The notes under the pieces were generated by a model. The model worked only from the letters and a program-made list of their open reading frames with translations. It was not told the origin of the DNA and searched no databases. A program made the translations under genes and the position numbers. A stretch of 12,763 nucleotides of DNA from the UHGV virus genome UHGV-1806816. One strand, written 5' to 3'. The stretch's first letter is position 1. Each line of letters opens with the position of its first letter. Positions 1 to 12,763 of this stretch are shown one piece after another. This stretch comes from a virus.

Positions 1-306
1 CAGATGCCTGAATGCCTTCATTGCCTCATAGATCACCGAGTCGGGGACCACCGCCAGCATCTGATACAGGTTAATCAGGTCAGCGTTGACGTCAGCCAGA
101 AGAAAGCGTTCGTGCTTGTCTGAGTTAAGGAACACCGAGCCGCCACCCACAAAAGGCTCAATAAGGCGTTTACCTGCGGGGATCAAACGATCCAGTTCCG
201 GCACTGCCGTGTATCTACCAAAGAGGAAGAACAGCTTAACGAAAAGCAGGTGGCAGCATGAGATACGGATCTGTTTGCTGCGCAGCGCCGGTTCTTCTAT
301 GGGCAT
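1..306 (-). CDS. DNA adenine methyltransferase (Dam family), 5' portion only; gene continues beyond the left edge of the window
   Basis: Minus-strand translation reads ...LFGRYTAVPELDRLIPAGKRLIEPFVGGGSVFLNSDKHERFLLADVNADLINLYQMLAVVPDSVIYEAMKAFRHL, which matches the N-terminal SAM-binding region of Dam-type methyltransferases (EPFVG.GSVFLN, LADIN.DLI.LY). The only in-frame ATG upstream of the motif is at 306..304, with GGAG about 9 nt upstream. Absent from the ORF track because it is open at the window edge. Confidence 0.6.
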   Translation of the reverse strand, partial: MPIEEPALRSKQIRISCCHLLFVKLFFLFGRYTAVPELDRLIPAGKRLIEPFVGGGSVFLNSDKHERFLLADVNADLINLYQMLAVVPDSVIYEAMKAFRHL

Positions 307-348
307 CGCCGCAGCTCCACTGCAAACAGATCCGTATCTCATGCTGCC
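252..348. repeat. Perfect 27-bp inverted repeat (arms 252..278 and 322..348) separated by a 43-bp spacer
   Basis: Left arm ggcagcatgagatacggatctgtttgc; right arm gcaaacagatccgtatctcatgctgcc, its exact reverse complement. The spacer contains the candidate ATG (306..304) and GGAG of the Dam-like gene; the right arm overlaps the stop of the upstream 52-aa ORF. Confidence 0.85.
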
Positions 349-497
349 ACCTGCTTTTCGTTAAGTTCTTCAGCCAGTCGTTGCGCCTTCAGTGGGTTGG
401 TAACGACTTCACCCCACGGCAGCAACCATCCGTTTTTCTCTTTGAGCCAGGGAAGGCGCACCGCGCCAACCCTGATGTCGTCGTGAGCGTGAGTCAT
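339..497 (-). CDS. Hypothetical small protein (52 aa), translationally coupled to the upstream gene
   Basis: ATG at 497..495 overlaps the TGA of the 142-aa gene (ATGA). Translation: MTHAHDDIRVGAVRLPWLKEKNGWLLPWGEVVTNPLKAQRLAEELNEKQVAA. Below the ORF-track size cutoff. No recognisable family. Confidence 0.3.
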   Translation of the reverse strand: MTHAHDDIRVGAVRLPWLKEKNGWLLPWGEVVTNPLKAQRLAEELNEKQVAA

Positions 498-922
498 AGG
501 ATGGACTCCATTTCGTCGATGTAGAGGCCCTGAGCAATCAGGCGGCTACGGCGGGCGGCACGGGCTATGCACTCCTGCCGTCTACCTTCCTGCGATTGCT
601 CAATGGCGCGCCGGGTGAACAGGCGCGATTTGCCCTGCGGCGTCACAACCTTCGGCTTCGTGACCAGGTCGAAAGTCCGGTCGCAGATGCCGTCCCCGTT
701 GATCCACTTTTCCGACTCAACGATCTGCGCTATCTGTCCGGAGCCGCGGGTAATACCGTTGGCTACCCGGTTAAACTCGATGAGCGTTACGCCAAACTTC
801 TCAGCGATTTCGCTGCCGGTTACCGGGCGGCCGCGCGTCTGAATCATCCAGATAACGCGCTCACGAAGGCCGGAGAATTGCCCGGTGCGCCCTGGCCTGC
901 GGTAAAATGGTGTGCGTTTCAT
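494..922 (-). CDS. Hypothetical protein with a probable helix-turn-helix (142 aa)
   Basis: Its start overlaps the exonuclease stop (ATGA at 919..922). An HTH-like segment reads VTGSEIAEKFGVTLIEFNRVANG. Function unknown. Confidence 0.5.
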   Translation of the reverse strand: MKRTPFYRRPGRTGQFSGLRERVIWMIQTRGRPVTGSEIAEKFGVTLIEFNRVANGITRGSGQIAQIVESEKWINGDGICDRTFDLVTKPKVVTPQGKSRLFTRRAIEQSQEGRRQECIARAARRSRLIAQGLYIDEMESIL

Positions 923-1536
923 GCTGCACGCTCTGTGATTTTCTGAATTTCCGATTCCAGATCTGCAAGGAAGCTCTTAACCTCAGATTCGATTTCGCGC
1001 GCCAGCTCTTCATCGAAATGAATCCGCTTCTTGAAATAGGCGAGGTCAGGCGGCAGGCGATCATCGAAACTAACGAAATCACACCATTTCCGCCCGGTGC
1101 ACATCATCTGTGCATGCATTTGCAGCATGTACTGGCGCTTTGGCTCACCAGTTTTCAGCGTTTCAAGATGGGTCCAGGTGTTGGGGCATTTGATTTCGAT
1201 AAGCCCGTCGTCGTTGACAAGTCCGTCCGGGCTGGCTGCGAATCCGGGTATGGTTGGGTGATCGATGAGCCCAACTTCAGTGATTGCCGCATTGAACTCA
1301 TTCAGCGCGTACATTTCGCGTGCCACTGGCTCAAGTTCAGTGCCGCGCATCATCGCGGCATTCGAAAACCCTTCCTCCAGCTTCCCGGTCAGCCGTTGGC
1401 AAATCAGCTCGGCCATGTAGTTCTGGCGGCTGGTGGAGTAGCCCGACTTAGTCCGGGCCATGACATCAGCCAGGCGACTGGCTGTGACCTTGCCGCAGCG
1501 CGCAGCAAACCATTCAGGGGTGCGTTGCTCTATCAT
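919..1536 (-). CDS. Recombination exonuclease, YqaJ / lambda-Exo family (PD-(D/E)XK)
   Basis: N-terminus MIEQRTPEWFAARCGKVTASRLADVMA is typical of YqaJ-type viral recombinases; a SPDG...IEIKCP motif is present. Sits directly downstream of bet with a 2-nt start/stop overlap. Confidence 0.8.
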   Translation of the reverse strand: MIEQRTPEWFAARCGKVTASRLADVMARTKSGYSTSRQNYMAELICQRLTGKLEEGFSNAAMMRGTELEPVAREMYALNEFNAAITEVGLIDHPTIPGFAASPDGLVNDDGLIEIKCPNTWTHLETLKTGEPKRQYMLQMHAQMMCTGRKWCDFVSFDDRLPPDLAYFKKRIHFDEELAREIESEVKSFLADLESEIQKITERAA

Positions 1537-2279
1537 TCAGCCTCCGTCTCTGCGACATTGACAGGTTCGGCGTTGTCGACAGCAAGACTCATGTCATACA
1601 TGCGTCGTTTCTCAACTGCGCCGATCACCTGTTTCTCTTCGGCGCTCAGCGCCACCCAGAACTCCTGATACTTAACGGTTCCAAGGCGCGCGGCGGACTC
1701 ACCTTTTGCGATCAGTTCCGGGCGGCGGCTATCTGATTCATGGCCCGCATGAACCTCTGCCGTTGTTCCTTCAATTACTCGCTCTGCCTCGTCCTGGTCG
1801 AAGATGCCAGCGAAACCAAAGGCCAGACGCGCGCACTGGATCAGCGTCTTGTGGCGAAGCATGCGGGTAGGGTGGGACTGCCATGGCTGAGTGTTGCGTT
1901 TGCACTCTCCCATGTACTCGGTGACGATGGTCGGGTGCTTACGGTCTTTGCGGTAAATCTTGCAGGTACACGCGCCTTCCTCCTTGTCGTAAGAGAACTC
2001 CATGCCGTCAAACTGAGGATGCTCGTTGATAATGCGAGCCCATCCATCAACGCCGACGACCGGGACAATCCCGCCTTTATCTGGGAATGCGTAAATCTCT
2101 TTGGTCCATGGGTTCAGGCCGTACTGGTTGGCGACGATCAACAGGGCTGTAAACTGCTCGTCCGTGACGTTGCCACCTTTGAACGCTGTATTCTTCAGCG
2201 TATTCATCAGGTCTGTACCGGCATCCATGCCGAGGCGTGCGGCCAGTTTCCCGGCCATGGTGGAAAGTGCAGTACTCAT
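1533..2279 (-). CDS. bet: Recombination protein Bet (Red-beta single-strand annealing protein)
   Basis: From the ATG at 2279 the protein reads MSTALSTMAGKLAARLGMD...LLIVANQYGLNPWTKEIYAFPDK.GIVPVVGVDGW.RIINE..QFDGM...WQSHPTRMLRHK..IQCARLAFGFAGI.D.DEAERV, near-colinear with lambda Bet. The ORF-track start at 2294 is a TTG; the ATG at 2279 with GAGGG upstream is preferred. Confidence 0.9.
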   Translation of the reverse strand: MSTALSTMAGKLAARLGMDAGTDLMNTLKNTAFKGGNVTDEQFTALLIVANQYGLNPWTKEIYAFPDKGGIVPVVGVDGWARIINEHPQFDGMEFSYDKEEGACTCKIYRKDRKHPTIVTEYMGECKRNTQPWQSHPTRMLRHKTLIQCARLAFGFAGIFDQDEAERVIEGTTAEVHAGHESDSRRPELIAKGESAARLGTVKYQEFWVALSAEEKQVIGAVEKRRMYDMSLAVDNAEPVNVAETEAE

Positions 2280-2297
2280 TGTTAAATCCCTCAAAAA

Positions 2298-2582
2298 TTA
2301 AAACGGGCAGCCGGTACGGTGTTCCCAGTCGTATTCCGCCTGGGCGTAAGCAACTACCGAAATGAAATCGTTGTAGGCCTCGCCAGCTTTATCGCTGCGA
2401 AGCCCTTCGTATGGGCTGGAGTCTATCGGGATCGTGAAGTGGAAGAGGCCGGACGGCTCTTTAGGCATCATGTCGATGATTTTCTGCGCCCGGTCGTCGA
2501 TCCACTTCTCTTTCTCGTCGGTGATCTGTTGCTCAGCCCAGCGCCGATCTTCGATGCGGTCGTAAGTGAGGTATGCGTTCAT
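2298..2582 (-). CDS. gam: Gam-like host-nuclease (RecBCD) inhibitor, short (GamS-like) form
   Basis: MNAYLTYDRIEDRRWAEQQITDEKEK... resembles lambda GamS ([31 protein letters not shown]...). Located immediately upstream of bet as in lambda; GAGG RBS 6 nt before the ATG. Confidence 0.7.
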   Translation of the reverse strand: MNAYLTYDRIEDRRWAEQQITDEKEKWIDDRAQKIIDMMPKEPSGLFHFTIPIDSSPYEGLRSDKAGEAYNDFISVVAYAQAEYDWEHRTGCPF

Positions 2583-2589
2583 GGTTGCC

Positions 2590-3561
2590 TCAGTAATGAA
2601 TTTTCGCGCAGGGGATCAGGTTATCTTTCAGAGCGGTAAGCACTTCGATAGCCTGCTCGCGGGTTAAGCTGGTTTGGCTGGTGAGCGCGTTAACGATGTT
2701 GGTGCCGACCGTCTTGCGGTGCTTAACGTCAGCTTCACGCTTTGCCTGCTCATCGGCGAGGCGCTTCTCTTCGGCCAGGCGGGCATCTTCGGCCTGTTTG
2801 GCCTTCAGGCGCTCGGCTTCAACCGCCGCGGCTTTTTCGCGTTCCGCCCGGGCTTCCGCTTCCTGCTTCTCGCGAGCTGCACGCTGTTCCGCTTCGACGC
2901 GCTGGCGCTCCGCCAGTTCAGCGCGGGCTTTCTCTTCGGCTTCACGGCGCGCTGCGGCTTCAATCTCCGCTTTGTGCTTCGCTTCGGCATCGCGGCGGGC
3001 TTGTTCTGCCGCTTCCTGTTTCAGCCGCTCATCACGTTCACGCTGAGCCTGTTCCGCCAGACGGCGCTGCTCTTCGCGGTCACGGTCAAAATCCTTGTTC
3101 ATCAGTAGAGCCATTTCGTGGTCCGCTTCGAACTTGGCAGCCAGCTCCTGATCGAACCTGATGTTCATCTCCAGCGCTTCGGCGTGCATCGCGTTCATGG
3201 CTTCTTCAGCCTTAATGCGTTCCTGCTCGGCTTCCCATTCGGTGAGTGGGCGGCGGGTCGCATCGCGCAGCTCGTCGCAGGCATCAACGAATCGCTTAAT
3301 TTCGGCCTCAGCCGGACGCACAGCCTCTTTCAGGCGCTTCAGGTACTCACGGCCCGGCTTTTCGATTGCCGTCTTGCTGCGGGACACCTGCGCTGCCAGA
3401 GAGGCAACACGGTCACGGCCTTTCTTCGTGGACAGGTCCGGCACTTCGTTTACAGCCTGGCGGATTTGCTCAAGGTACGCGTCAAGGCCGCCCGCTACGT
3501 AAAGCACTGGGGCCTGTTCCGGCTTGATTTCGATGACAGTTAAGTCCGTTACTTCGCTCAT
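2590..3561 (-). CDS. Hypothetical highly charged coiled-coil protein (323 aa) with a low-complexity Ala/Glu/Arg/Lys-rich central region
   Basis: Strong AGGAG RBS 5 nt upstream of the ATG at 3561. Globular-looking N-terminus (about 100 aa) and C-terminus (...VGTNIVNALTSQTSLTREQAIEVLTALKDNLIPCAKIHY) flank roughly 170 aa of AEQ/RERA-type heptad-like repeats. Overlapping plus-strand ORFs are artefacts of the GC-rich repetitive DNA. Confidence 0.6.
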   Translation of the reverse strand: MSEVTDLTVIEIKPEQAPVLYVAGGLDAYLEQIRQAVNEVPDLSTKKGRDRVASLAAQVSRSKTAIEKPGREYLKRLKEAVRPAEAEIKRFVDACDELRDATRRPLTEWEAEQERIKAEEAMNAMHAEALEMNIRFDQELAAKFEADHEMALLMNKDFDRDREEQRRLAEQAQRERDERLKQEAAEQARRDAEAKHKAEIEAAARREAEEKARAELAERQRVEAEQRAAREKQEAEARAEREKAAAVEAERLKAKQAEDARLAEEKRLADEQAKREADVKHRKTVGTNIVNALTSQTSLTREQAIEVLTALKDNLIPCAKIHY

Positions 3562-3631
3562 GGTTTCTCCTGAAATTTGGATGTGCAGATCCCGCCCGCG
3601 TAATGCCAGGCCGATCGGTTGAATAGGGTGG

Positions 3632-3829
3632 TTACTGCTGCGCGATGGATTTCGCCGGGAACTCGCCGTTGCGGATGATGCTTTCTACCGGCCAGCACTC
3701 AGCTGACACTTTCTGCTCTGTAGCTGCCAGGCTGCATTCCTGCTGGCTGTCGTAAACGCCGAGAATGACATCCTGATAATCACCGTTGGTCATTGCCACG
3801 GTCAGGACGAGTGCGAATAAAGTTTCCAT
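3632..3829 (-). CDS. Hypothetical small protein (65 aa) with a hydrophobic N-terminal segment
   Basis: ATG at 3829..3827 overlaps the TGA of the upstream 42-aa ORF (TGATG). METLFALVLTVAMTNGDYQDV... has a probable signal/membrane-anchor segment. The ORF-track version starts at a GTG (3883) with no RBS. Confidence 0.4.
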   Translation of the reverse strand: METLFALVLTVAMTNGDYQDVILGVYDSQQECSLAATEQKVSAECWPVESIIRNGEFPAKSIAQQ

Positions 3830-3957
3830 CAGTGAAGAGTCCTCCCGATGGCGACGGCGTAAAGGCGTTTTGCTTCTTCCCACGCCGGAGCATTGCGATG
3901 GAGCACCGCGAACGACGCGAGCCGTTGGGCCTCTCTGATCTGCTGCTGGTTTACCAT
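3829..3957 (-). CDS. Hypothetical small protein (42 aa)
   Basis: ATG at 3957..3955 is preceded by AAGAGGAAA with a 3-nt spacer. Translation: MVNQQQIREAQRLASFAVLHRNAPAWEEAKRLYAVAIGRTLH. Coupled to the downstream 65-aa ORF. Sits where lambda has kil/cIII, but no sequence identity is claimed. Confidence 0.35.
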   Translation of the reverse strand: MVNQQQIREAQRLASFAVLHRNAPAWEEAKRLYAVAIGRTLH

Positions 3958-4096
3958 GATTTCCTCTTGGCCTTATCGCGGCGAACGGAACGGTTAATAC
4001 AAGACTTCAACGCATTTATTCAGTGTTTCAATGGGCGGTGGATGGCCGCCGGTTGTCATAAATGGGCAGACTCGAAAATCTGCCTATGTATGGCCG

Positions 4097-4119
4097 ATAA
4101 AAAACCCGCCGGAGCGGGT
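4097..4119 (-). terminator. Putative intrinsic terminator downstream of the 222-aa gene (tL1-like position)
   Basis: On the minus strand: stem ACCCGC / GCGGGT with a 4-nt loop (4119..4104), followed directly by TTTTTTAT. It overlaps the stop codon of the 222-aa gene. Confidence 0.5.
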
Positions 4120-4787
4120 CATTCATTCTTTGGTATGCCGCAAAGGGCGTTTAGCGTTTCAACGGGAATGGCAAGTGCGGTGCTGGTCGCTTCACGGCGT
4201 TCCACCTCAGGCAAATATGGCACTGCCTCAGGCCACATCTCAGCCAGTTTTTTAACAGTTGAGACTTTGGTTAGAGCACCTTTAACCTGCAATTGGAAGG
4301 CATCAACTTCATCGTAAAGAACGTTGATGGTTACCGTCGATTCAGTGAGTCGGTCGTGTAATTTTCCAACTTTCTTCAGCGTGCTGTAACTTTCAGGAAC
4401 GAAACCCGAATCAATTACAGGCGCGAAGGAAGCTCCGAAGAACAGGTCGCTTTCAAGATCGTGCTTACCAATATGTTTTCCACGGTGGCGATAGCGATGA
4501 TCCAAACCGTTCCTGGCTAATTCGTGATACTCACCATTAATAATGACCTTTAAAGTTGCAGTTTTAGCGCCGACCTGCATCTTGATGAAGGAGTTATCTT
4601 TGAAATCTTCCCGAGCCTTAGTTATTTGCTCATCGCTAGTGTTTTCCTGCTTGAGCAATGCCTGTCGAATTTCTTCAACAATTTTCGCCCTCTCATTAAC
4701 CGCAGCTTTCGCTTTCTCAAACAATGGGGATGCGAGAAGCAGGTTATGGCATAGCTGATTTTTAATTTCGTTGTTAAGACGAATCAT
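4119..4787 (-). CDS. Hypothetical protein (222 aa), lower-GC orphan gene; first gene downstream of the OL-like operators
   Basis: ATG at 4787 with GAGGGT 6 nt upstream. About 45% GC against 55-60% in the flanking phage genes. Contains a basic His/Arg cluster (DHRYRHRGKHIGKHD). No recognisable motif; no transmembrane segment; no Arg-rich N-terminus as in N proteins. Confidence 0.7.
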   Translation of the reverse strand: MIRLNNEIKNQLCHNLLLASPLFEKAKAAVNERAKIVEEIRQALLKQENTSDEQITKAREDFKDNSFIKMQVGAKTATLKVIINGEYHELARNGLDHRYRHRGKHIGKHDLESDLFFGASFAPVIDSGFVPESYSTLKKVGKLHDRLTESTVTINVLYDEVDAFQLQVKGALTKVSTVKKLAEMWPEAVPYLPEVERREATSTALAIPVETLNALCGIPKNE

Positions 4788-5203
4788 TGACTTACCCTCT
4801 GTCGTTACCCGCTGATGCGGGAGAAATGCTTTGGCGATGTGGTAGGTGGGAGACCCATTTCGACCCGATTCGGCCTACTTATCTTCGGCAATAGCTCCTC
4901 GGGCCTCGCCGCTTTACGTGCGACATATTCCCGTCCATGAACCCTTCACCACATCCCATAACATTCCCTGTATTGGTCAGCGCCAACTCCCTGCCAGTGT
5001 TGCCCGTTCTCACGCCGTTCTCGCTCTCGCGTGGGGATACTCTCTCACCGACCGGATCGCACCCGGTGATACAGCACGTTTACGTGTAGGGGTCTTAACA
5101 GGTCATTGACGCTGTAAATCTGCATGTTGTTAAAAAGCAGGCGACTTGCTGTCCGCCGCTGGCTAACTTCGCTCAGCTGTCGATGTTTCGTTTCGATGGG
5201 GTA

Positions 5204-5281
5204 AATTTAGCGTGATGCTAAATTATGCGCAATAGCAAAATGCTAAATTGTTGAATGGTTTTATTTAGCGTATTGATTAAT
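5204..5281. promoter_or_regulatory. OL-like operator cluster: three ATTTAGC-N5-GCTAAAT-type inverted repeats (putative pL control region)
   Basis: 5204..5224 is a perfect palindrome AATTTAGC-gtgat-GCTAAATT. Imperfect copies lie at about 5231..5249 (AATAGC-aaaat-GCTAAATT) and 5263..5281 (ATTTAGC-gtatt-GATTAAT). The same half-sites recur in the cI-cro intergenic region. Promoter hexamers could not be placed unambiguously. Confidence 0.5.
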
Positions 5282-5319
5282 AAGCGATTAAAAATTTACA
5301 GCGAAGGAATTCGGGACGT

Positions 5320-5343
5320 AAAAAAGCCCGCGCGATGGCGGGC
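5320..5343 (-). terminator. Putative intrinsic terminator of the repressor gene
   Basis: Stem GCCCGC (5326..5331) / GCGGGC (5338..5343) with a 6-nt loop; on the minus strand it is followed by TTTTTTAC. Lies 21 bp downstream of the cI stop. Confidence 0.6.
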
Positions 5344-5363
5344 TTGAGGGGTTTTGCGTGAGG

Positions 5364-6041
5364 TTATGGGATGTTTAGTATTTTGGCATCAACCACAACG
5401 CCGATGATTTTGCAGTTTCCATTAATTTCTAGCATTGGATATGCGGGGTTAAGGGGCTTTAGGAAGCGTCTGCCGGCATCGATTACAAGCTTCTTAAAGG
5501 TCGCTTCGTTATCGCCTTCTAGCTTCGCGACAACCAGCTTTCCGTTGCGCGGCTCGACTTCAGGATCAACAAGTATCGCTGCTCCCTCGGGTATGCTCAG
5601 TCCAGCCGGGGAGGTCATAGAATCCCCTTTAACGTCCAGCCAGAATGAATCTTCTGAGCAGTCAACAGTCGTGTCATACCAGCGATCTATCGCTCTTCGG
5701 TGATAAGGTTCTACAGCTTCCATCCATTGCCCCGCGCTTACCCAGCTGATTACAGGATAACTTCCTTTTGTCTCGTTCAGTCCTCGAAATGCAACGTTCG
5801 AAGGTTCTTCACTGGCGTGTAAAACATCCATCCAGCCAAAAGGCAGATCAAGCGCAGTTTCAATTTTGCGAGCCATCTTATCGCCGATATTGCGATGAGG
5901 GTTTGGTCCCAGTAGCTGGCTAAGCGCAGCCGGACTTGTCTCGATGAGCTCGGCAAACTGCGCTTTGGTCATTCCAGACTCGTGCTGACGCTTCTCGTAC
6001 AGCGCTTCCAGGTTGGCTTTTCTGATTTCTTTATTTTCCAT
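5364..6041 (-). CDS. CI-like prophage repressor: N-terminal HTH (XRE type) plus C-terminal LexA-like S24 peptidase domain
   Basis: From the ATG at 6041: MENKEIRKANLEALYEKRQHESGMTKAQFAELIETSPAALSQLL... (HTH), then ...FWLDVKGDSMTSPAGLSIPEGAAILVDPEVEPRNGKLVVAKL... (Ser/Lys dyad context of S24 autopeptidases). The ORF-track start at 6158 would run through the operator region and is rejected. Confidence 0.85.
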   Translation of the reverse strand: MENKEIRKANLEALYEKRQHESGMTKAQFAELIETSPAALSQLLGPNPHRNIGDKMARKIETALDLPFGWMDVLHASEEPSNVAFRGLNETKGSYPVISWVSAGQWMEAVEPYHRRAIDRWYDTTVDCSEDSFWLDVKGDSMTSPAGLSIPEGAAILVDPEVEPRNGKLVVAKLEGDNEATFKKLVIDAGRRFLKPLNPAYPMLEINGNCKIIGVVVDAKILNIP

Positions 6042-6058
6042 ACCTGCATTGTTACTGC

Positions 6059-6126
6059 TTTTAGCAAAATGATAAATGTGCAAATTGCTAAATGATGCTT
6101 GCGTAGTATTTAGCATAACGCTAAAC
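6059..6126. promoter_or_regulatory. OR-like operator region between divergent cI-like and cro-like genes
   Basis: Half-sites of the same motif as at OL: TTTTAGC-aaaat-GATAAAT (6059..6077), GCTAAAT (6087..6093) and ATTTAGC-ataac-GCTAAAC (6108..6126). Sits in a 116-bp divergent intergenic region. Confidence 0.55.
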
Positions 6127-6157
6127 TCCAAATCAAACGACTCACCCGGAGACACCA

Positions 6158-6391
6158 ATGAGCACTGAACTACACCGCTGGCGCAAGGCCGCCACTACCG
6201 ACGAATGGGCGCAGCTCGCAAAGTTGGCTAACACGACGCCAGGTTACCTGGACCAGATCGCCTACGGAAATCGCCGGGCATCTCCAGAAATGGCATCTGC
6301 TATCGAGAAAGGCACGAAGAATTTTCACCGCCAGGCTCCGGTCCTAAAAGAAAGCCTGGTATTCGCATCGCCGCGTGATACTGCGGCCTAA
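6158..6391 (+). CDS. Cro-like small HTH regulator (YdaS-type)
   Basis: 77-aa protein, divergent from the repressor and immediately right of the operators. HTH-like segment WAQLAKLANTTPGYLDQIAYGNRRASPEMASAIEKGT. Confidence 0.7.
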   Translation: MSTELHRWRKAATTDEWAQLAKLANTTPGYLDQIAYGNRRASPEMASAIEKGTKNFHRQAPVLKESLVFASPRDTAA

Positions 6392-6408
6392 CCACGAAAG
6401 GGAAAGCA

Positions 6409-6951
6409 ATGCATTCACTTGCGTATCAACACAATACCGGAATACACCCGGGAGCGATGATAAACCGCGCTCAAGCTAAAGCGACGCCGGACCACGAAAA
6501 GATCCGCGATGCGGTCCGTGCCTGGTCATCGGCGCTGGATAATCAGGACGTGGTGTCAGCGCTGATCATCAACGAATACCGGGAGCAGGGCGGGACCGCC
6601 ATCAGCTTTCCGGACGACATCAGCCGGGCGCGCCAGAAGCTGTTCCGCTTCCTGGATAACCGCTTCGACTCTGAGCAGTACCGCGAGAACGTGCGCCAGC
6701 TGACGCCCGCAATCATGGCCGTTTTGCCGCTGGAGTATCGCCATCGACTTCTTCCAGAGGACAGTTTTATGTCCCGCTTAGCTCGACTTGAGAAAGAAAC
6801 GAGCGAGGCGAAAGTGGCCGTTGCGATGAACGCCCCGCGTCACCAGAAGCTCAAGGAACTCAGTGAGGGGATTGTAGAGATGTTCCGTGTCGACCCGGAT
6901 CTGACCGCGCCGCTGATGGCTATGGTCACTTCGATGTTGGGGGTTATGTGA
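6409..6951 (+). CDS. CII-position regulator, YdaT-like protein (180 aa)
   Basis: Directly downstream of cro with an AAGGGAAA RBS. Position and size match YdaT-family proteins that pair with YdaS-type Cro in Rac-like prophages. Family assignment is from memory of the family, not a search. Confidence 0.5.
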   Translation: MHSLAYQHNTGIHPGAMINRAQAKATPDHEKIRDAVRAWSSALDNQDVVSALIINEYREQGGTAISFPDDISRARQKLFRFLDNRFDSEQYRENVRQLTPAIMAVLPLEYRHRLLPEDSFMSRLARLEKETSEAKVAVAMNAPRHQKLKELSEGIVEMFRVDPDLTAPLMAMVTSMLGVM

Positions 6952-7187
6952 TGGGAAGTTTCAAAAATGGCGAAAGCCAGTCTGCGCGAACAGAACTGGC
7001 CTTCAGATGCAAATCGTGTGCACTCATTGCAGGAGGAATAATGGCAAAAAATCCACGCTATTACCATACCTCTGTACATAAAAACATAACCCGCGACCGC
7101 TTCATCCGCTCGGTTAACCCGATTGTGGCAGAGAAGATGCGCGCCATCCTGGAAGAACTGAAACGTAAGGAGAGTGGCCGTGGGTAA
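6948..7187 (+). CDS. Hypothetical small protein (79 aa from GTG 6948, or 48 aa from ATG 7041)
   Basis: The GTG at 6948 overlaps the ydaT-like stop (coupling). The internal ATG at 7041 has a strong AGGAGG RBS at 7031..7036. Which start is used cannot be decided from sequence alone. Confidence 0.35.
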   Translation: MMGSFKNGESQSARTELAFRCKSCALIAGGIMAKNPRYYHTSVHKNITRDRFIRSVNPIVAEKMRAILEELKRKESGRG

Positions 7188-8079
7188 CGTATCCAATTTA
7201 GCCGAAGCCAGAGAGGCCAGAAGGCTCCAGAAACCGCGCACGAATGACGGTAAGGGGTTTGCCTTGCTGCACCGTAAAATTATGGATGTGCCGTTCTACA
7301 AGGACGCTGAGGCGGCTCATTTATGGGTTCACATGCTCCTGCGTGCTAATCACGAACAGACACTGGTATCTACTGATGTTGGCGATGTGATCTGCGAGCG
7401 CGGAGAGTTCATCACCGGGCGAAACACACTGGCAATGGAAACGGGTTTGACCGCTGATCGCGTTAAATCCCTTCTCCGTAAATTCCAGAATCTGGGCATG
7501 ATCACCACCAAATCGAACAACCGTTTTACTGTTCTAAAAGTGGTCAAATATGACGAATATCAGTCAAATTTTTGTCCAGCAGATGTCCAGCCAGCGTCCA
7601 GCCCAAACATAGTCGTACCAATGCCTGCGGAGGTGGAGTGTCCAGCCGATGTCCAGCCAGTGTCCACAGATAACAATATATTAAATAACTTACTACCTAA
7701 CGGTAGTAAGTATGTCGCAAATGACCAGAAACCCGCTGAAGAGAAAAAGTCTCGTTTGTCATGCGATGAAGTATGGCAATGCCTGAAAGACGAACTGCCT
7801 GAAGCACGGGGATGGAGATGCCTCACTGATGAGCGACGCAATCTGATCCGCACATTCTGGGGTAAGGCTAATAAGATTGCCCGCAACCTGGACGGCAAGC
7901 CGATGGATATGGACGGTTTCAGAAGCTATCTGCGTTACATCGCTCAGAACTGCCGCTGGATGCTTGAAGACCGACCAGACCAGAAGTCTGGGAAGACCTG
8001 GCGCCGCATGAAATTCGATAAGTTCCTGACCGAAAAGCTCTACATCGAAGTGCGCGAGGGGGATCGTGATGACCGCTGA
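7174..8079 (+). CDS. Replication initiation protein (lambda O / P22 gp18-like replisome organiser) carrying the origin within its coding sequence
   Basis: N-terminal region ...GFALLHRKIMDVPFYKDAEAAHLWVHMLLRANHEQ... resembles phage replisome-organiser N-domains. The middle of the gene holds direct repeats encoding CPADVQP twice, then an AT-rich stretch. The GTG at 7180 (AAGGAG 9 nt upstream) may be the true start. Followed by the DnaB-type helicase. Confidence 0.75.
   Translation: MAVGNVSNLAEAREARRLQKPRTNDGKGFALLHRKIMDVPFYKDAEAAHLWVHMLLRANHEQTLVSTDVGDVICERGEFITGRNTLAMETGLTADRVKSLLRKFQNLGMITTKSNNRFTVLKVVKYDEYQSNFCPADVQPASSPNIVVPMPAEVECPADVQPVSTDNNILNNLLPNGSKYVANDQKPAEEKKSRLSCDEVWQCLKDELPEARGWRCLTDERRNLIRTFWGKANKIARNLDGKPMDMDGFRSYLRYIAQNCRWMLEDRPDQKSGKTWRRMKFDKFLTEKLYIEVREGDRDDR
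7574..7711. other. Putative phage origin of replication: iterons, AT-rich region and inverted repeat
   Basis: At least six copies of GTCCAG(CC) at 7574..7580, 7585..7595, 7596..7603, 7640..7647, 7651..7660 and 7662..7668. Then the AT-rich gataacaatatattaaataactta, then a perfect 10-bp-arm inverted repeat ACTTACTACC-taac-GGTAGTAAGT (7688..7711). Architecture parallels ori-lambda inside gene O. Confidence 0.6.
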
Positions 8080-9502
8080 TTTCATGGCTGTACCACAAAA
8101 CCTCGAAGCAGAGCAGAGCGTTATCGGTGGCCTGCTGCTGGATGATGACAACAGCGAGCGAGTCCAGAAGGTTCTGGCGATGCTCAAGCCTGAATCGTTC
8201 TACAGCCGACCTCACCAGCTGATCTTTGCCGAGATGCGCCAGATGTTCCGCGACAACAAGCCAGTCGATGGTCTGACATTGTTCGACGCGCTCGAAGGCA
8301 AAGGGCTCGCGGAGCAGGTAGGTGGCTTTGCTTACCTGGCGGAGATCGCCAAGAACACTCCCAGCGCTGCAAACATCGTGGCATACGCTGCGTCAGTCCG
8401 GGAAGCCGCAATGGAGCGCTACGGTATCAGCCGCCTGACCGAAGCTACTGAGCTGCTGTATTCCCGCAATGGCATGAGCGCCACGCAGAAGTACGAGGCC
8501 ATTCAGGGTATTTTCACCCAGCTCGCAGACCATTCAAAAACCGGTAGTCGCCGTGGGTTGCGGTCGTTCGGCGAGGTTATGGATGACTGGGTAGCAGATC
8601 TGGAGAAACGCTTTGCCCCTTCAGGCGAACAGCGCGGCATGAGCACCGGCATCCCGTCACTCGACCGGCTGCTGGCGCCGAAAGGTCTGGTTAAAGGCTC
8701 TCTGTTCGTGATTGGCGCAAGGCCAAAGATGGGCAAGACAACCCTGTACGGTCAGATGGCGATCAACTGCGCGGTTCGTGAGAAAAAGCCAGCGCTGATG
8801 TTCAGCCTCGAAATGCCGGGCGACCAGATCCTCGAAAAACTGGTTGGTCAGAAGTCTGGAGTTAACCCGAGCATTTTTTACATGCCAGCCACGGATGACG
8901 CCGATGACCAGTACCAGGGCGATTACGACGGCGACTTTAAGAAGGCGATCGCCACCGCCGGGCGATTGAGTGAAATCGACATGCTGTACATCGACGATAC
9001 TCCTGGCCTGTCACTGGCGCACATCGTTAGCGAAAGCCGCCGAATCAAGCGCGAGAAGGGCTGCGTAGGAATGATTTTGGTTGACTACCTGACTCTGATG
9101 ACCGCCGAAAAAGCCGACCGTAATGACCTTGCCTACGGGATGATCACCAAAGGGTTGAAGAACCTCGCTAAAGAGCTTGGCTGCGTCGTCGTGCTGCTGA
9201 CCCAGCTCAACCGCGAACTGGAGAAGCGAGTGAATAAACGCCCGTTACCGAGCGATTCCCGCGACACAGGACAGATTGAGCAGGACTGCGACTACTGGGT
9301 TGGTATCCACCGGGAAGGTGCTTTCGATGACAGCGTGCCGCCGGGAGAAACCGAGTTAATCCTGCGACTCAATCGCCACGGCAGTACCGGAACGGTTTAT
9401 TGCAATCAGATCAACGGGGCAATTTACGACACAGACCAGCAGGCCGCCGCCGCAGAACGCCGCGGGCGTGAGCAGCAGCCGAAAAAGAAAGGGGGATTCT
9501 GA
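8069..9502 (+). CDS. Replicative DNA helicase, DnaB family (P22 gp12-like)
   Basis: Walker A GARPKMGKT, DnaB-like N-terminal domain (QNLEAEQSVIGGLLLD...), and C-terminal RecA-like core. ATG at 8069 with GAGGGGGA RBS; the ORF-track start at 8066 is a GTG one codon upstream. Confidence 0.9.
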   Translation: MTADFMAVPQNLEAEQSVIGGLLLDDDNSERVQKVLAMLKPESFYSRPHQLIFAEMRQMFRDNKPVDGLTLFDALEGKGLAEQVGGFAYLAEIAKNTPSAANIVAYAASVREAAMERYGISRLTEATELLYSRNGMSATQKYEAIQGIFTQLADHSKTGSRRGLRSFGEVMDDWVADLEKRFAPSGEQRGMSTGIPSLDRLLAPKGLVKGSLFVIGARPKMGKTTLYGQMAINCAVREKKPALMFSLEMPGDQILEKLVGQKSGVNPSIFYMPATDDADDQYQGDYDGDFKKAIATAGRLSEIDMLYIDDTPGLSLAHIVSESRRIKREKGCVGMILVDYLTLMTAEKADRNDLAYGMITKGLKNLAKELGCVVVLLTQLNRELEKRVNKRPLPSDSRDTGQIEQDCDYWVGIHREGAFDDSVPPGETELILRLNRHGSTGTVYCNQINGAIYDTDQQAAAAERRGREQQPKKKGGF

Positions 9503-9846
9503 TGACCATAACAATCCGCGGGCAGATTCTTGCAGCCCTGCGTAACAACCCGGGCCTGAACAGTGCTCGTATTGCCAGCATGATCGGCATGACCACCAAA
9601 AAGATTTCCGGCCCGTTAAGTACGTTGTTTGCAGACGGCCTGATCGAGTTCGAAGGCAAGCACGGACAGCGGCTTTATCGGCTGACCGATTACGGCATGA
9701 AATACGCACCAGAAACAATCCCGGCTATGCCGAAGGGAAATTCGAAGCTGGTGCAGCGTACAGAGGCAAACGTGATCTGCCAGGAGTGCCGCAACAGCGC
9801 GGCGATGAGAAGGGTATTGATGGTTTGGGGGAGGGTAGGGGTATGA
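9502..9846 (+). CDS. Hypothetical protein, probable winged-helix DNA-binding fold (114 aa)
   Basis: Start overlaps the helicase stop (TGATG). Sequence ILAALRNNPGLNSARIASMIGMTTKKISGPLSTLFADGLIEFEGKHGQRLYRLTDYG resembles MarR/PadR-type winged helices. Confidence 0.45.
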   Translation: MTITIRGQILAALRNNPGLNSARIASMIGMTTKKISGPLSTLFADGLIEFEGKHGQRLYRLTDYGMKYAPETIPAMPKGNSKLVQRTEANVICQECRNSAAMRRVLMVWGRVGV

Positions 9847-10040
9847 AAATCGAAGATATCAAAAACGTTGCGGTGTTCTTCAATATGAACGGCAAGACAG
9901 TAGCGTTACGAATGGATGCTGAGCAGAAGCGGATCGTCGCATTAATGGCGCTTAACACGGCTGATGCTCGGGCAGAACTGATTGAAGTGCCGCACATGAC
10001 TTTACCAGCAGACCCAGCCATGGAGGAGGCCGCCCAATGA
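9843..10040 (+). CDS. Hypothetical small protein (65 aa)
   Basis: ATG at 9843 overlaps the upstream stop (ATGA), with GGAGGG upstream. The ORF-track version (9786) begins further upstream with no RBS. Confidence 0.4.
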   Translation: MKIEDIKNVAVFFNMNGKTVALRMDAEQKRIVALMALNTADARAELIEVPHMTLPADPAMEEAAQ

Positions 10041-10324
10041 GCAACATCGACAAACAGGAGCTGCGCCTAACAGCAGAAAAGGCGAAAGATAACTTCATGC
10101 CGAACTTCATGGTACCAACTCGCGATTTACTGGCGCTGCTGGATGAGCTGGAAGCCGCAGAGAAGCGAATTGCTGAGCTGGAGGCGCTAGGGCGTTGCGT
10201 GAAGCAGTTCTCAGAGTTCCAGATTTGCCATTACGGTGCCACTGAGGACTATGCGAAGGGCTATATCGACTGTCAGAACAATTACAACAAAGTGCTGTTC
10301 GCCGCAGCCGGTAAAGGAGAGTGA
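10037..10324 (+). CDS. Hypothetical coiled-coil protein, possibly ead/Ea22-like (95 aa)
   Basis: Strong GGAGGAGG RBS 7 nt upstream; ATGA coupling to the upstream gene. N-terminal ...LLALLDELEAAEKRIAELEA... resembles the Ea22-type N-terminal coiled coil of lambdoid prophage genes. Confidence 0.45.
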   Translation: MSNIDKQELRLTAEKAKDNFMPNFMVPTRDLLALLDELEAAEKRIAELEALGRCVKQFSEFQICHYGATEDYAKGYIDCQNNYNKVLFAAAGKGE

Positions 10325-10326
10325 GC

Positions 10327-10614
10327 ATGTCAGTTGAACTCGAAGATAAACGCCGTAGTGGGCAGCGTATTCCCGGCCTCGGACTCGCTAATGGGACGTG
10401 GTTTGCAGTTCTGGATATTCCAGGCATGGGAAAGCTTATCAACAATCAGCATACCAATGACCCGCTTGATGTGACGCCAGCCAAAGCGAAAAAGATGGCA
10501 GAGATTGTCGAGGCATGGACACCACCGGATGGTTGGTCTGGCAGCGAGCAAGAAAAAATGAAGAGTTATATCGTCGAATTTCTTCGCGGTTGCAACGGTT
10601 TTAGGAGCTACTAA
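10327..10614 (+). CDS. Hypothetical protein (95 aa from ATG 10327)
   Basis: ATG at 10327 with AAGGAGAG upstream; the ORF track starts at GTG 10321, overlapping the upstream stop. No recognisable family. Confidence 0.45.
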   Translation: MSVELEDKRRSGQRIPGLGLANGTWFAVLDIPGMGKLINNQHTNDPLDVTPAKAKKMAEIVEAWTPPDGWSGSEQEKMKSYIVEFLRGCNGFRSY

Positions 10615-10617
10615 CCC

Positions 10618-11256
10618 ATGACATTAACCAAAGAATGGCTCCTGAAAACTATCGCGGAGCTTGAAGAAGAGCGCGCTGCTGTGCCCGGCGCTGTAAACGA
10701 AGATGCAGCACGGCCGCTGGCGGCGATGAAGTTGGCGCTGACATCGCTCGAAGCGGAGCCTGTGGCGTGTCCGAAATGCAATGATACTGGAATGGCTGAT
10801 AGTGGAGGAGTTCAACCATGGGGGGAGCCAATAAGCGTCCCATGTGATTGCACCGCCCAGCCAGCGCTGGCAGTTGATGCTGATGATAATTTTTATTCAT
10901 GGTTCGGTAGAGAATGGAATGATCATTATCAGCAAAACCAATACACCACGGCAGCTAAACAGATGCTTGGTGTTATGGCCGAATCTGCGTGGAAAGCTGG
11001 TCGGCGCGCCGCCATGCTTCAGGGTGCCGAACTTGTAAGTAATCGTGATGAGTTGCCGGATGGTTGGGTGGCTTGCAGTGAGCGGATGCCGGAGAAAACT
11101 GATGAAGTTTTGTGTGCCAAAGAATTCGATGGTCCAGGTGATTGGCGCCAAAAGGTTGGTTATTACTTAGCGGGGAAATGGACGGTGTATAGCGCATCAT
11201 GGACGCCGACCCACTGGATGCCACTGCCAGCAGCACCGCGGCAGGAGCTGAAGTGA
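10618..11256 (+). CDS. Hypothetical protein with DUF551-like C-terminus and Ea22-like N-terminal coiled coil (212 aa)
   Basis: C-terminal ...KWTVYSASWTPTHWMPLPAAP matches the W..THWMPLP signature I associate with DUF551 prophage proteins. N-terminal TLTKEWLLKTIAELEEERAA is coiled-coil-like; a Cys-rich segment reads CPKCNDTG...CDC. Confidence 0.5.
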   Translation: MTLTKEWLLKTIAELEEERAAVPGAVNEDAARPLAAMKLALTSLEAEPVACPKCNDTGMADSGGVQPWGEPISVPCDCTAQPALAVDADDNFYSWFGREWNDHYQQNQYTTAAKQMLGVMAESAWKAGRRAAMLQGAELVSNRDELPDGWVACSERMPEKTDEVLCAKEFDGPGDWRQKVGYYLAGKWTVYSASWTPTHWMPLPAAPRQELK

Positions 11257-11292
11257 CGAACAAGATGACGAGAGTTACCATAGATATAAATC

Positions 11293-11316
11293 AAGGCCCT
11301 TAGGGGCCTTTTATTC
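11293..11316 (+). terminator. Putative intrinsic terminator
   Basis: Stem AAGGCCC (11293..11299) / GGGCCTT (11304..11310) with loop TTAG, followed by TTTATT. Lies 37 bp after the stop of the DUF551-like gene. Confidence 0.6.
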
Positions 11317-11349
11317 TATGATAAACGGACTTTGTTTGAGAGTGACGCC

Positions 11350-11676
11350 ATGAAGTCCAAGAAGCTAAATGCTGAGCAGCAATACAAATTAGACCTTGAA
11401 TTGGTCAAGAAGAAGCCTGCGAACCGGACCGAGGCAAAAGCCCATTTGGCCGCACAGTTACGAATCAGCAAGTACAAGACGCAGACCTCTTCCAAAATCC
11501 GCGTAGGCAGTTTTAAGGGGCGGAAGAAGGTACATTTCAGTAAGGCGGAACAAGCAGCCAGGGCAGCACTAAATAAAGCAAATGCCATTAGATTTTCCGA
11601 AGGGGAGGTCGAGTCCGTCGATACGGATAGAATCTCAGAAAGTAACAAACGCTGGCGCGGGAGAACTGCTGACTAA
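11350..11676 (+). CDS. Hypothetical basic, Lys-rich protein (108 aa from ATG 11350)
   Basis: The ORF-track start at 11332 is a TTG; the first ATG is at 11350. About 47% GC. No recognisable motif. Stop overlaps the start of the next gene (TAATG). Confidence 0.45.
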
Positions 11677-11930
11677 TGTCTGACTGGAATATTGCTGCAA
11701 AGCCGCAGGAAGAACGCGACAAGGTCAACGTTGACCTGGCAGCCTCCGGCGTAGCCTACAAAGAGCGCCTGAACATGCCGGTTATCGCTGAGGTGGTGAT
11801 GCGTGAGCAGCCCGAGCATTTGCGTGATTACTTCCTTGAGCGTCTGAAGTTTTATCGCGAGAAGTCGATAGATTTACCAAGGGCATCCGATCCGCGGTAC
11901 ATGGAAATGGCTGATTCTAATAAAAAATAA
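11676..11930 (+). CDS. Hypothetical protein (84 aa)
   Basis: Translationally coupled to the upstream gene. No recognisable motif. Confidence 0.45.
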
Positions 11931-11981
11931 GCCCTAACGTGTTGATGACCTTATCAGACCTAAACAGGAGGTTTTTCTAAA

Positions 11982-12521
11982 GTGATTAATATCATTGTTG
12001 ATTCCAATGCTTGGAATTTTTTACATGTGAGTGGGATCTCCTTAAGCAACGAGCTTCTTAGCGATTATAACTTTCAGATAACATTAGAGGTGTCTCGTGA
12101 ATTGCAGGAGTTAGTAGGCAAGGAAGGGAAGGAAGCTCTTTATGAATTCTTTGTAAGTGAGACTCAGTCGCTTGAAGAGCCCTTATGCTATTTTGGTTTT
12201 TACAATGAGTCAGTGCCTGCTGATGAACAGCGGTTTGGTGGATTTGGTGTTGGCGGGTTCGCATCTGTTCATCAAGATGATTATTTTCAGAAAACATTCC
12301 GCCAAATAAAATCATCAAAGCGTGGTATTTATTATGGCAATGAAGCTGACATGCTGATCGGGTCAAGAGGAATTGGGAACACTTTCATACTAACAGAAGA
12401 TAATAATAAGTCAGGCCCGATGAAAGAGGCTGAGAACACTATCTTTGTTTCAAGAAAATTTCCTATGACTGTGGAGCAGTTTAAGGAATATCTTGATCTT
12501 GAAACCTCAAAAACTCTTTAG
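11982..12521 (+). CDS. Hypothetical low-GC protein with PIN-like nuclease signature (179 aa)
   Basis: About 40% GC. GTG start with AGGAGG 10 nt upstream. N-terminal beta-strand plus Asp (MINIIVDSNAW), a central acidic residue, and C-terminal ...NEADMLIGSRGIGNTFILTEDNN... follow the PIN / VapC-like pattern (D...E...D.(L/I)IA...G...(I/V)(V/L)T.(D/N)). Assigned by eye, not by search. Confidence 0.45.
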   Translation: MINIIVDSNAWNFLHVSGISLSNELLSDYNFQITLEVSRELQELVGKEGKEALYEFFVSETQSLEEPLCYFGFYNESVPADEQRFGGFGVGGFASVHQDDYFQKTFRQIKSSKRGIYYGNEADMLIGSRGIGNTFILTEDNNKSGPMKEAENTIFVSRKFPMTVEQFKEYLDLETSKTL

Positions 12522-12616
12522 TTACTGCGCTTTGATTTTTCATAATCACTCCGCCATAATCATGTCATCGGAGCCTGAACAACTCCGGTGACTTCTTCGC
12601 ATTTAAGGGGACTTAA

Positions 12617-12712
12617 ATGCGACCACAATCTGAACTCATCGCCTTGTCACAGATGCAGACATGCACCTGCGATTTTCTGCATTCTGCGGTTTCCGTCAAG
12701 GAGGCCGTATGA
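12617..12712 (+). CDS. Possible small ORF (31 aa) followed by a 9-aa ORF and the start of a gene running off the right edge
   Basis: ATG at 12617 gives MRPQSELIALSQMQTCTCDFLHSAVSVKEAV. Its stop overlaps ATG 12709 (ATGA), which has a strong AGGAGG RBS 4 nt upstream and encodes MIIPKDGIN. A further ATG at 12741 (MEAKTSG...) is open to the window edge. All weakly supported. Confidence 0.2.
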   Translation: MRPQSELIALSQMQTCTCDFLHSAVSVKEAV

Positions 12713-12763
12713 TTATCCCCAAAGACGGCATCAACTAAGGATGGAGGCGAAGACCAGCGGCAT

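Follow-up and report, generated by a model that had tools for sequence, protein, structure and literature searches.

The stretch of DNA analysed here, 12,763 nucleotides of the virus genome UHGV-1806816 (called the window hereafter, at its full length), is the early region of a lambdoid prophage in which a YqaJ exonuclease, a RecT recombinase, an S24/HTH repressor and a DnaB-type helicase are encoded, with Escherichia coli as the main source of exact matches to its proteins. The analysis concerns three consecutive genes near the 3' end of the window, named A, B and C (Table 1), the last of which encodes a candidate nuclease of the PIN-like superfamily. An earlier note, made from the letters alone, had proposed that the three genes form one cassette, a toxin or defence module in which an upstream small protein would serve the nuclease as antitoxin or sensor. 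The features on which this proposal was built, namely a terminator, two overlapping small genes and a gene of 39% GC with two quoted motifs, were all found in place, the motifs being IIVDSNAW at residues 4-11 and NEADMLIGSRGIGNTFILTEDNN at residues 120-142 of the gene C protein.

Table 1. Features of the three-gene stretch and its borders, in window coordinates
Feature	Position	Strand	Remarks
Terminator-like hairpin and T-run	11293..11316	+	Downstream of a DUF551 gene
Gene A	11350..11676	+	108 aa, basic, pI 10.4, 17 Lys and 10 Arg
Gene B (Hot/theta)	11676..11930	+	84 aa
Mosaic module with gene C	11895..12522	+	Variable 3' tail of hot, 51-nt spacer with Shine-Dalgarno, gene C
Shine-Dalgarno AGGAGG	11966..11971	+	10 nt before the gene C GTG; read from the sequence
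Gene C	11982..12521	+	179 aa, GTG start, acidic, pI 4.65
ybcN/ninB leader	12523..12708	+	80-93% identity with many lambdoid phages; right recombination boundary of the module
ybcN-like gene, 5' end	12709..12738	+	MIIPKDGIN, stop after 9 codons (12736-12738)

The hairpin ahead of the three genes (11293-11310) consists of a 7-bp stem with 5 G-C pairs and a 4-nt loop and is followed by TTTTATTCT; its folding energy is -12.9 kcal/mol, a value matched by 8 of 200 shuffled sequences, and terminator-like sites in the region number 6 against 2.1 ± 1.8 expected. In phage HK639, an annotated terminator of different sequence occupies the equivalent position upstream of the theta gene. The hairpin and its T-run are probably a nin-region terminator, and expression of the genes beyond it would require read-through. 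The ATG of gene B shares one base with the TAA of gene A (gacTAATGtct), an overlap consistent with translational coupling, while a spacer of 51 nt carrying the AGGAGG separates hot from gene C. Neither a promoter-like site between 11316 and 11982 nor a clear terminator directly 3' of 12521 was found by consensus scan, which is weak evidence either way. No LexA box, looked for because relatives of gene C have dinI neighbours, was found near the three-gene stretch, and an Rfam scan of the window gave no match at the gathering threshold.

The GC content of gene C is 0.389 (GC3 0.367) compared with 0.538 over window positions 1-11316, and only this gene is markedly low, gene A standing at 0.483 and gene B at 0.502. 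The same is true of its homologues, whose GC content ranges from 0.35 to 0.45 against 0.45-0.55 in their flanks. Since every homologue examined has low GC, this is a trait of the gene family and no sign of recent acquisition by this particular phage; the low GC itself, as read in the earlier note, thus stands while the recent arrival deduced from it does not.

The gene C protein has no match in Pfam at E<=1, in NCBIfam or in PADLOC, and only phrog_26388, a family of unknown function, was recovered. A word-indexed search returned 26 clusters, all from Enterobacterales and all annotated as hypothetical, and an exhaustive profile search extended the family to 182 representatives at E<=1e-3 (77 at E<=1e-10), mostly of 180-200 aa; the longer members (231-281 aa) carry N-terminal extensions in which no Pfam domain was detected. 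Two alignments were used in what follows, a close one of 20 homologues and a diverse one of 56 members with 22-59% identity to the window protein. A genome scan with the close alignment yielded two loci only. The dN/dS of gene C, calculated against homologues of 84% and 75% identity, is 0.058, and this substitution pattern shows it to be a real gene under purifying selection. No paper was found that mentions the RefSeq accessions or that ties a PIN domain to the nin region.

The fold was approached with an AlphaFold2 model built from the 20 close homologues (pLDDT 78.8, pTM 0.78, core blocks 83-98). The model displays a three-layer alpha/beta/alpha arrangement around a central parallel beta-sheet (S1-S5 core), which is the architecture that characterises the PIN-like superfamily, and the top Foldseek matches are nearly all PIN domains, among which the VapC of 3tnd reaches a probability of 0.94 and VapC/Fcf1-type RNases are the best structural matches. 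In the BFVD library of viral structures, the model found no match at E<=0.001. At the level of sequence profiles, the close alignment has a single match among PDB sequences, the PIN protein 1o4w (E=0.076), in which the beta-1 Asp and a T..E motif are aligned; the broad alignment gave nothing meaningful. A glycine-rich insert of about 35 aa (approximately residues 62-95), with the conserved motif FGF..EQR.GGFG.GGF / FGF..EQR.GGFG.G.F, is specific to the family.

According to Matelska et al. 2017, conserved acidic residues in set places define the PIN-like active site (PMC5499597), and the gene C model carries the expected Asp after S1 and acidic residues after S2 and after S4. D7, which follows strand 2-6 (S1) and aligns with the beta-1 Asp of 1o4w, does not vary in any of the 56 diverse members. 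Helix 35-42, which comes after strand 29-32 (S2), contains E36 and E40, and the N-terminus of helix 121-129 contains E121 and D123; E40, E121 and D123 are each among the residues conserved in at least 90% of the 56 members, together with W11, F71, G72, F73, G87 and G91. D140, in the LTED that follows strand 134-138 (S4), never varies among the 20 close homologues and is retained by most members of the wider family, at a frequency below 90%. As modelled, this layout of acidic residues matches the published definition of the active site, and the assignment of the protein to the PIN-like fold, as a divergent member, is considered sound. The PIN-like character and the acidic residues that the earlier note had read from two motifs are therefore borne out by the model, by Foldseek and by conservation in both alignments; of the two checks to which it had tied this assignment, the predicted structure fits the PIN layout whereas the Pfam and NCBIfam profiles assign no family. 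Gene C is best filed as an uncharacterised family of its own within the PIN-like superfamily.

The borders of the DNA that brings gene C were located by comparison with theta loci in which the PIN-like gene is missing, those of E. coli GB089 and HK639. Similarity stops at 11878-11894, within the 3' end of hot, and resumes at 12523-12530, just past the gene C stop. The slot thus delimited after theta is occupied by other genes elsewhere: an uncharacterised 73-aa protein in HK639, a 216-aa protein overlapping theta by 4 bp in GB089 (L031 2172-2822), and either nothing or an uncharacterised 162-aa protein (L049 3043-3531) in L046-L050. The GB089 occupant was considered as a relative of gene C and rejected, being unrelated and having no Pfam match. 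The position behind hot has the appearance of a hotspot for uncharacterised cargo. On its right side, the ybcN/ninB leader is present in 2,164 of 5,426 complete E. coli genomes, with relatives in HK225, phi80 (two copies of an annotated IR4), HK639, phage 82 (an annotated promoter and regulator-binding site) and many E. coli prophages; it holds a promoter-like site (12532-12560) and a weak hairpin (12654-12671). In two loci (L007 and L023), two leader copies of about 90% identity flank the PIN-like gene, which suggests that recombination within the leader moves gene C; upstream of gene C, both have about 525 bp of DNA of their own, in which no strong match to a promoter was found.

Gene C therefore shows presence/absence polymorphism between collinear phages together with deviant composition, two marks of a moron, and on this sequence comparison it is an independent, mosaic, moron-like accessory gene of the nin region, placed between the A-Hot genes and the ybcN/ninB leader. 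The sharp mosaic boundaries and the other occupants of the slot agree with the exchangeable nin-region cargo that had been suspected from the start.

Gene B, its upstream neighbour, was identified by several profiles: PF06440 (E=1.1e-34, 118.4 bits for a cut-off of 34.6), NF008207 (107.9 bits for a cut-off of 97) and the solved HOT structures PDB 1se7/2ido (E=5.4e-35), in addition to 77% identity with P1 Hot and 87.5% with HK639 theta. By these matches it is Hot, the phage homologue of DNA polymerase III's theta subunit. Hot is able to stand in for theta by stabilising the epsilon proofreading subunit, and P1 Hot is expressed in both the lysogenic and the lytic stages (PMC2528190, PMC7556043). 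Judging from its sequence, the gene B product is expected to bind and stabilise epsilon likewise. In the scheme proposed here, Hot would act on the proofreading subunit of the polymerase, and A and Hot would be neither antitoxin nor sensor for the nuclease.

Gene A matches phrog_14068 (E=7e-68); no Pfam or NCBIfam match, no PDB profile match and no recognisable domain were found in it, and against PADLOC it gave a chance-level score only (0.017), gene B having no match there at E<=1. Its 43 homologue clusters, all from Enterobacterales and all annotated as hypothetical, share an invariant C-terminal motif, NA.RF.EG.V.SV.T.R...KRWRG.TAD. The AlphaFold2 model of gene A is of low confidence (pTM 0.41) and too uncertain for a fold search. 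The consensus also shows a beta-clamp-like QLxLxL motif, which was discarded because its Gln varies and is replaced by Lys in the window protein. In the loci of gene A homologues that were looked up (down to 59% identity), theta lies directly downstream with a 1-nt overlap and gene C is absent, the gene after theta being NinB, a YbcN-like gene or the 162-aa protein; E. coli GB089 displays the same A-theta order. In HK639 (L032, HM208537.1), an unannotated open reading frame of about 60 aa (~1820-2003) lies between the annotated terminator and theta, ends with a C-terminal motif of the gene A type, ...GEVESVDGFRSPYETRKKRGRTAD*, and overlaps the theta ATG with its stop (TAATG). From its sequence this frame is a short gene A homologue, in agreement with the phrog_16632 match on the gene A C-terminus. 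Since A stays with theta in loci where gene C is missing, A and Hot are, as far as gene order and overlap tell, a conserved and translationally coupled pair across Enterobacterales prophages (L031, L046-L050), with gene C outside the pair. Gene A may act with Hot on the host replicase.

The linkage of gene C itself was counted over nine lineages. Theta is found within 1 kb upstream in six of them, and in two lineages (L025 and L027) its stop overlaps the gene C start by 4 bp; in the other three (L018/L029, L022/L024 and L023) theta is absent within 5 kb, and gene A accompanies gene C in two lineages only. Among the complete E. coli genomes, 24 carry a close phage-type theta, which corresponds to a background of about 1% in the slot (24 against the 2,164 with the leader); A-B-C occurs in one genome and B-C in two more. 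The exact gene C protein is found on about 220 E. coli contigs, while a tblastn search of 50,697 deposited phage genomes returned no match for gene C or gene A. The identities of B and C drop together across lineages, which fits a long co-inheritance of the block. Because the slot takes unrelated genes, most theta genes lack C and C exists without theta, the adjacency is read mainly as block inheritance combined with a shared insertion hotspot. The comparative check on co-occurrence foreseen in the earlier note shows the PIN-like gene moving independently and A-Hot pairs persisting where it is missing; its functional cassette of three genes, on the other hand, is contradicted by the linkage of A to B rather than to C and by the lineages in which C stands without theta.

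Distant members of the gene C family (23-35% identity) are solitary genes, and no antitoxin-like partner is conserved across the homologue loci examined. In Citrobacter, Leclercia and related contigs (L033-L037 and L039-L040, 23-27% identity), the gene is always located about 216 bp downstream of a gene for a 79-aa DinI-family protein, at the prophage end and beside tail-fibre genes. With DinI, as with theta, the neighbour is a host accessory protein for DNA metabolism in a small version carried by the phage. In an Aeromonas Mu-like prophage (L041-L043, P0029 cluster), a 250-aa form with an N-terminal extension of about 65 aa lies in the head module, between an HNH gene and a Mu-like protease. 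In Aeromonas rivipollensis, the annotation splits this region into two genes, of 65 aa and 183 aa, which reflects either a frameshift or a genuine two-gene arrangement. On the Azospirillum chromosome, a lone family member stands between an esterase gene and rplU.

Taken together, the fold, the conserved acidic residues and the mosaic borders suggest that gene C encodes a standalone and divergent PIN-like nuclease, carried as exchangeable cargo, and that A and Hot constitute a separate unit; a probability of roughly 60% is given to this interpretation. Several observations weigh against it. None of the 56 diverse family members rises above a Pfam threshold, the strays being NYN (0.032), DUF4411 (0.039) and PIN_9 (0.072), and at the sequence level gene C falls in no curated PIN family (PF01850 PIN, PF13470 PIN_3, PF14367 DUF4411 and others). 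Comparison of the family with the verified Shigella VapC by hhalign was not significant (probability 0.6%) and aligned only the NEAD...LTED segment, no Foldseek E-value for gene C lies below 0.03, and residues 71-92 of the insert are modelled at low confidence. That the acidic residues come together at a single metal site is deduced only from their secondary-structure positions in the model. Finally, the excess of theta upstream of gene C over its background in the slot, together with the 4-bp overlaps, leaves room for a functional link between Hot and gene C.

If gene C is indeed a PIN-like nuclease, Mg2+ or Mn2+ would most likely be bound by D7, E40 (with E36), D123 (with E121) and D140. RNA is the most likely substrate by analogy with the VapC/Fcf1 group, and the glycine-rich insert probably contributes to substrate recognition or to gating of the active site. 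Because no promoter-like site was found in 11316-11982, and gene C begins 51 nt after hot and behind the terminator, it would be made together with A and Hot from a delayed-early transcript, upon read-through of 11293-11316. Its role would lie in phage-host or phage-phage conflict, for which host takeover or counter-defence in lytic growth and exclusion of other phages are the candidates. The placement of gene C in the window favours a function in the lytic phase, whereas the positions of the distant relatives favour protection of the lysogen.

The latter positions lead to the alternative which survives best, in which gene C would be a single-gene effector of anti-phage defence or superinfection exclusion, expressed at a low level in the lysogen and unleashed as a nuclease upon infection, in the manner of abortive infection. 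PIN nucleases are known effectors in defence systems. As a low-GC and patchy prophage gene in a variable slot, gene C has the appearance of such cargo, its distant relatives lie in classical lysogenic-conversion positions (after dinI at the prophage end, or as a unit set apart within a Mu-like head module), and it occurs in prophages yet is absent from the deposited phage genomes. Against this stand the lack of any PADLOC model matched at E<=1, which leaves the defence module of the earlier note unsupported on this point, the lack of a conserved sensor or partner gene, and the location of gene C behind an early-operon terminator with no promoter-like site ahead, from which expression in a repressed lysogen is not expected. 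This explanation is thus a possible one, at clearly lower odds than that of a standalone nuclease serving as cargo.

Two related ideas give weight to the neighbourhood of Hot, and both are held to be improbable. According to the first, gene C would be a nuclease linked to replication or repair and would work with Hot on DNA or RNA-DNA intermediates at the replisome. The theta adjacency in excess of background, the translational overlap of theta and C in two lineages and the presence of DinI, another small modulator of DNA metabolism, beside distant relatives speak in its favour, and FEN-type DNA nucleases belong to the PIN-like superfamily (PMC5499597). The best structural matches are nevertheless RNases of the VapC/Fcf1 type and not FEN-type enzymes, the 179-aa product has no H3TH or other DNA-binding module, gene C is also found without theta or dinI, and the adjacency can be explained by block inheritance and an insertion hotspot, the slot holding unrelated genes elsewhere. 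In the second idea, no less doubtful, the PIN-like nuclease would be functionally coupled to small phage copies of host DNA-metabolism proteins, Hot/theta here and DinI in the relatives. In such a coupling, the condition of the replisome or of the SOS machinery could restrain or set off the nuclease, or Hot could neutralise it directly; if true, a PIN effector would here have a type of partner not described before.

A toxin-antitoxin module, with the PIN-like protein as a VapC-type toxin neutralised by Hot or by the basic 108-aa protein, is very unlikely. The order of small genes followed by a PIN gene does resemble vapBC, theta is enriched upstream of gene C, and the 4-bp overlap of the theta stop with the C start in L025 and L027 would suit such a module. 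However, gene B is a genuine Hot/theta, whose solved function is an unrelated one and which has no DNA-binding antitoxin domain; gene A is the constant partner of theta where C is missing, and neither of the upstream proteins has the look of an antitoxin or sensor for the PIN-like protein. Moreover, A and B occur together without C in 21 of the 24 theta-bearing E. coli genomes, in all 38 phage records and in L046-L050, C occurs without A in seven of the nine lineages and without B in three, and no small adjacent gene is common to the distant family members. It is equally hard to credit that gene C is a catalytically inactive PIN-like scaffold or binding protein, as inactive PINs (SMG5, Nmd4-like) among the structural matches and an acidity (pI 4.65) unusual for a nucleic-acid enzyme might suggest, since all four canonical acidic positions are conserved, with D7 invariant throughout the diverse alignment, and inactive PINs typically lose these residues (PMC5499597).

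Some features of the window lie outside these questions. Downstream of the leader, similarity to all relatives, including a 99.7% identical prophage of E. coli L6-21, ends at about 12735-12737, at the stop of the truncated ybcN-like frame; the final ~26 bases of the window are of another kind, for example a rearrangement, an insertion or the border of a deletion. The cII position (6409-6951) is taken by a gene of the YdaT_toxin family (PF06254, E=7e-27), as it is in Rac-type prophages. On the minus strand, 4119-4787 encodes a 222-aa protein matching Pfam Nmad5 (nucleotide modification associated domain 5, E=6e-31). With about 42-46% GC, this stretch is the second island of low GC in the window; it is flanked by the recombination genes and the repressor, and the gene in it may likewise be an accessory one.

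The gene C family adds to the PIN-like superfamily an uncatalogued group of about 180 representatives at 50% identity for which there is no Pfam, NCBIfam or PADLOC model, and whose members are found repeatedly as lone cargo genes, at several prophage positions, in Enterobacterales, Aeromonas and other bacteria. With its presence on some 220 E. coli contigs and its predicted catalytic residues named, gene C is a tractable candidate for a single-gene phage-conflict nuclease. The gene order mimics vapBC, yet the small genes are a conserved A-Hot unit which probably acts on the host replicase; the idea of a cassette with its antitoxin should consequently be dropped for these three genes. The A-Hot pairing, including the A-like frame of HK639, may bear on how temperate phages manipulate Pol III.

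Among known systems, the VapC-type PIN RNases (Shigella/Salmonella VapC, 3tnd and 6sd6; Caulobacter VapC1, 5k8j) resemble gene C in the placement of their acidic residues after S1, after S2, at the helix N-terminus and after S4, and in a 'T-x-D' motif after strand 4. Gene C differs from them in being about 45 aa longer, with its glycine-rich insert between helices 3 and 4, in having no significant sequence similarity and no match to PF01850 or another PIN Pfam family, and in having neither a VapB-type antitoxin gene nor any other conserved neighbour. In place of the small upstream antitoxin with a DNA-binding domain (AbrB, RHH, PHD/YefM or HTH) that marks VapBC, the gene upstream is Hot/theta, and in place of a co-occurring partner the distant members stand next to DinI, HNH or an esterase, or by themselves. 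DUF4411 (PF14367), of the VapC group, is similar to gene C in its single-domain build, its length of about 180 aa and its four acidic residues predicted for the active site; some of its members are monocistronic, and a distant member of the gene C family (P0178) is labelled 'DUF4411 family protein' in UniRef. In contrast, only one of the 56 family members touches PF14367, at an E-value of 0.039 that is well below significance, and while DUF4411 genes outside Actinobacteria usually follow HTH-DUF955 (ImmA) genes (PMC5499597), there is no such neighbour at gene C loci.

As for gene B, it differs from P1 Hot and E. coli HolE in its surroundings, since it lies in a lambdoid nin region, whereas P1 Hot is found among the P1 late genes, and is preceded by the translationally coupled, basic gene A. 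Lastly, classical morons bring their own promoter and terminator, whereas the DNA preceding gene C in the window showed no promoter-like site; with the morons of the lambdoid nin region, gene C shares presence/absence polymorphism, sharp mosaic boundaries at gene ends and a deviant GC content.

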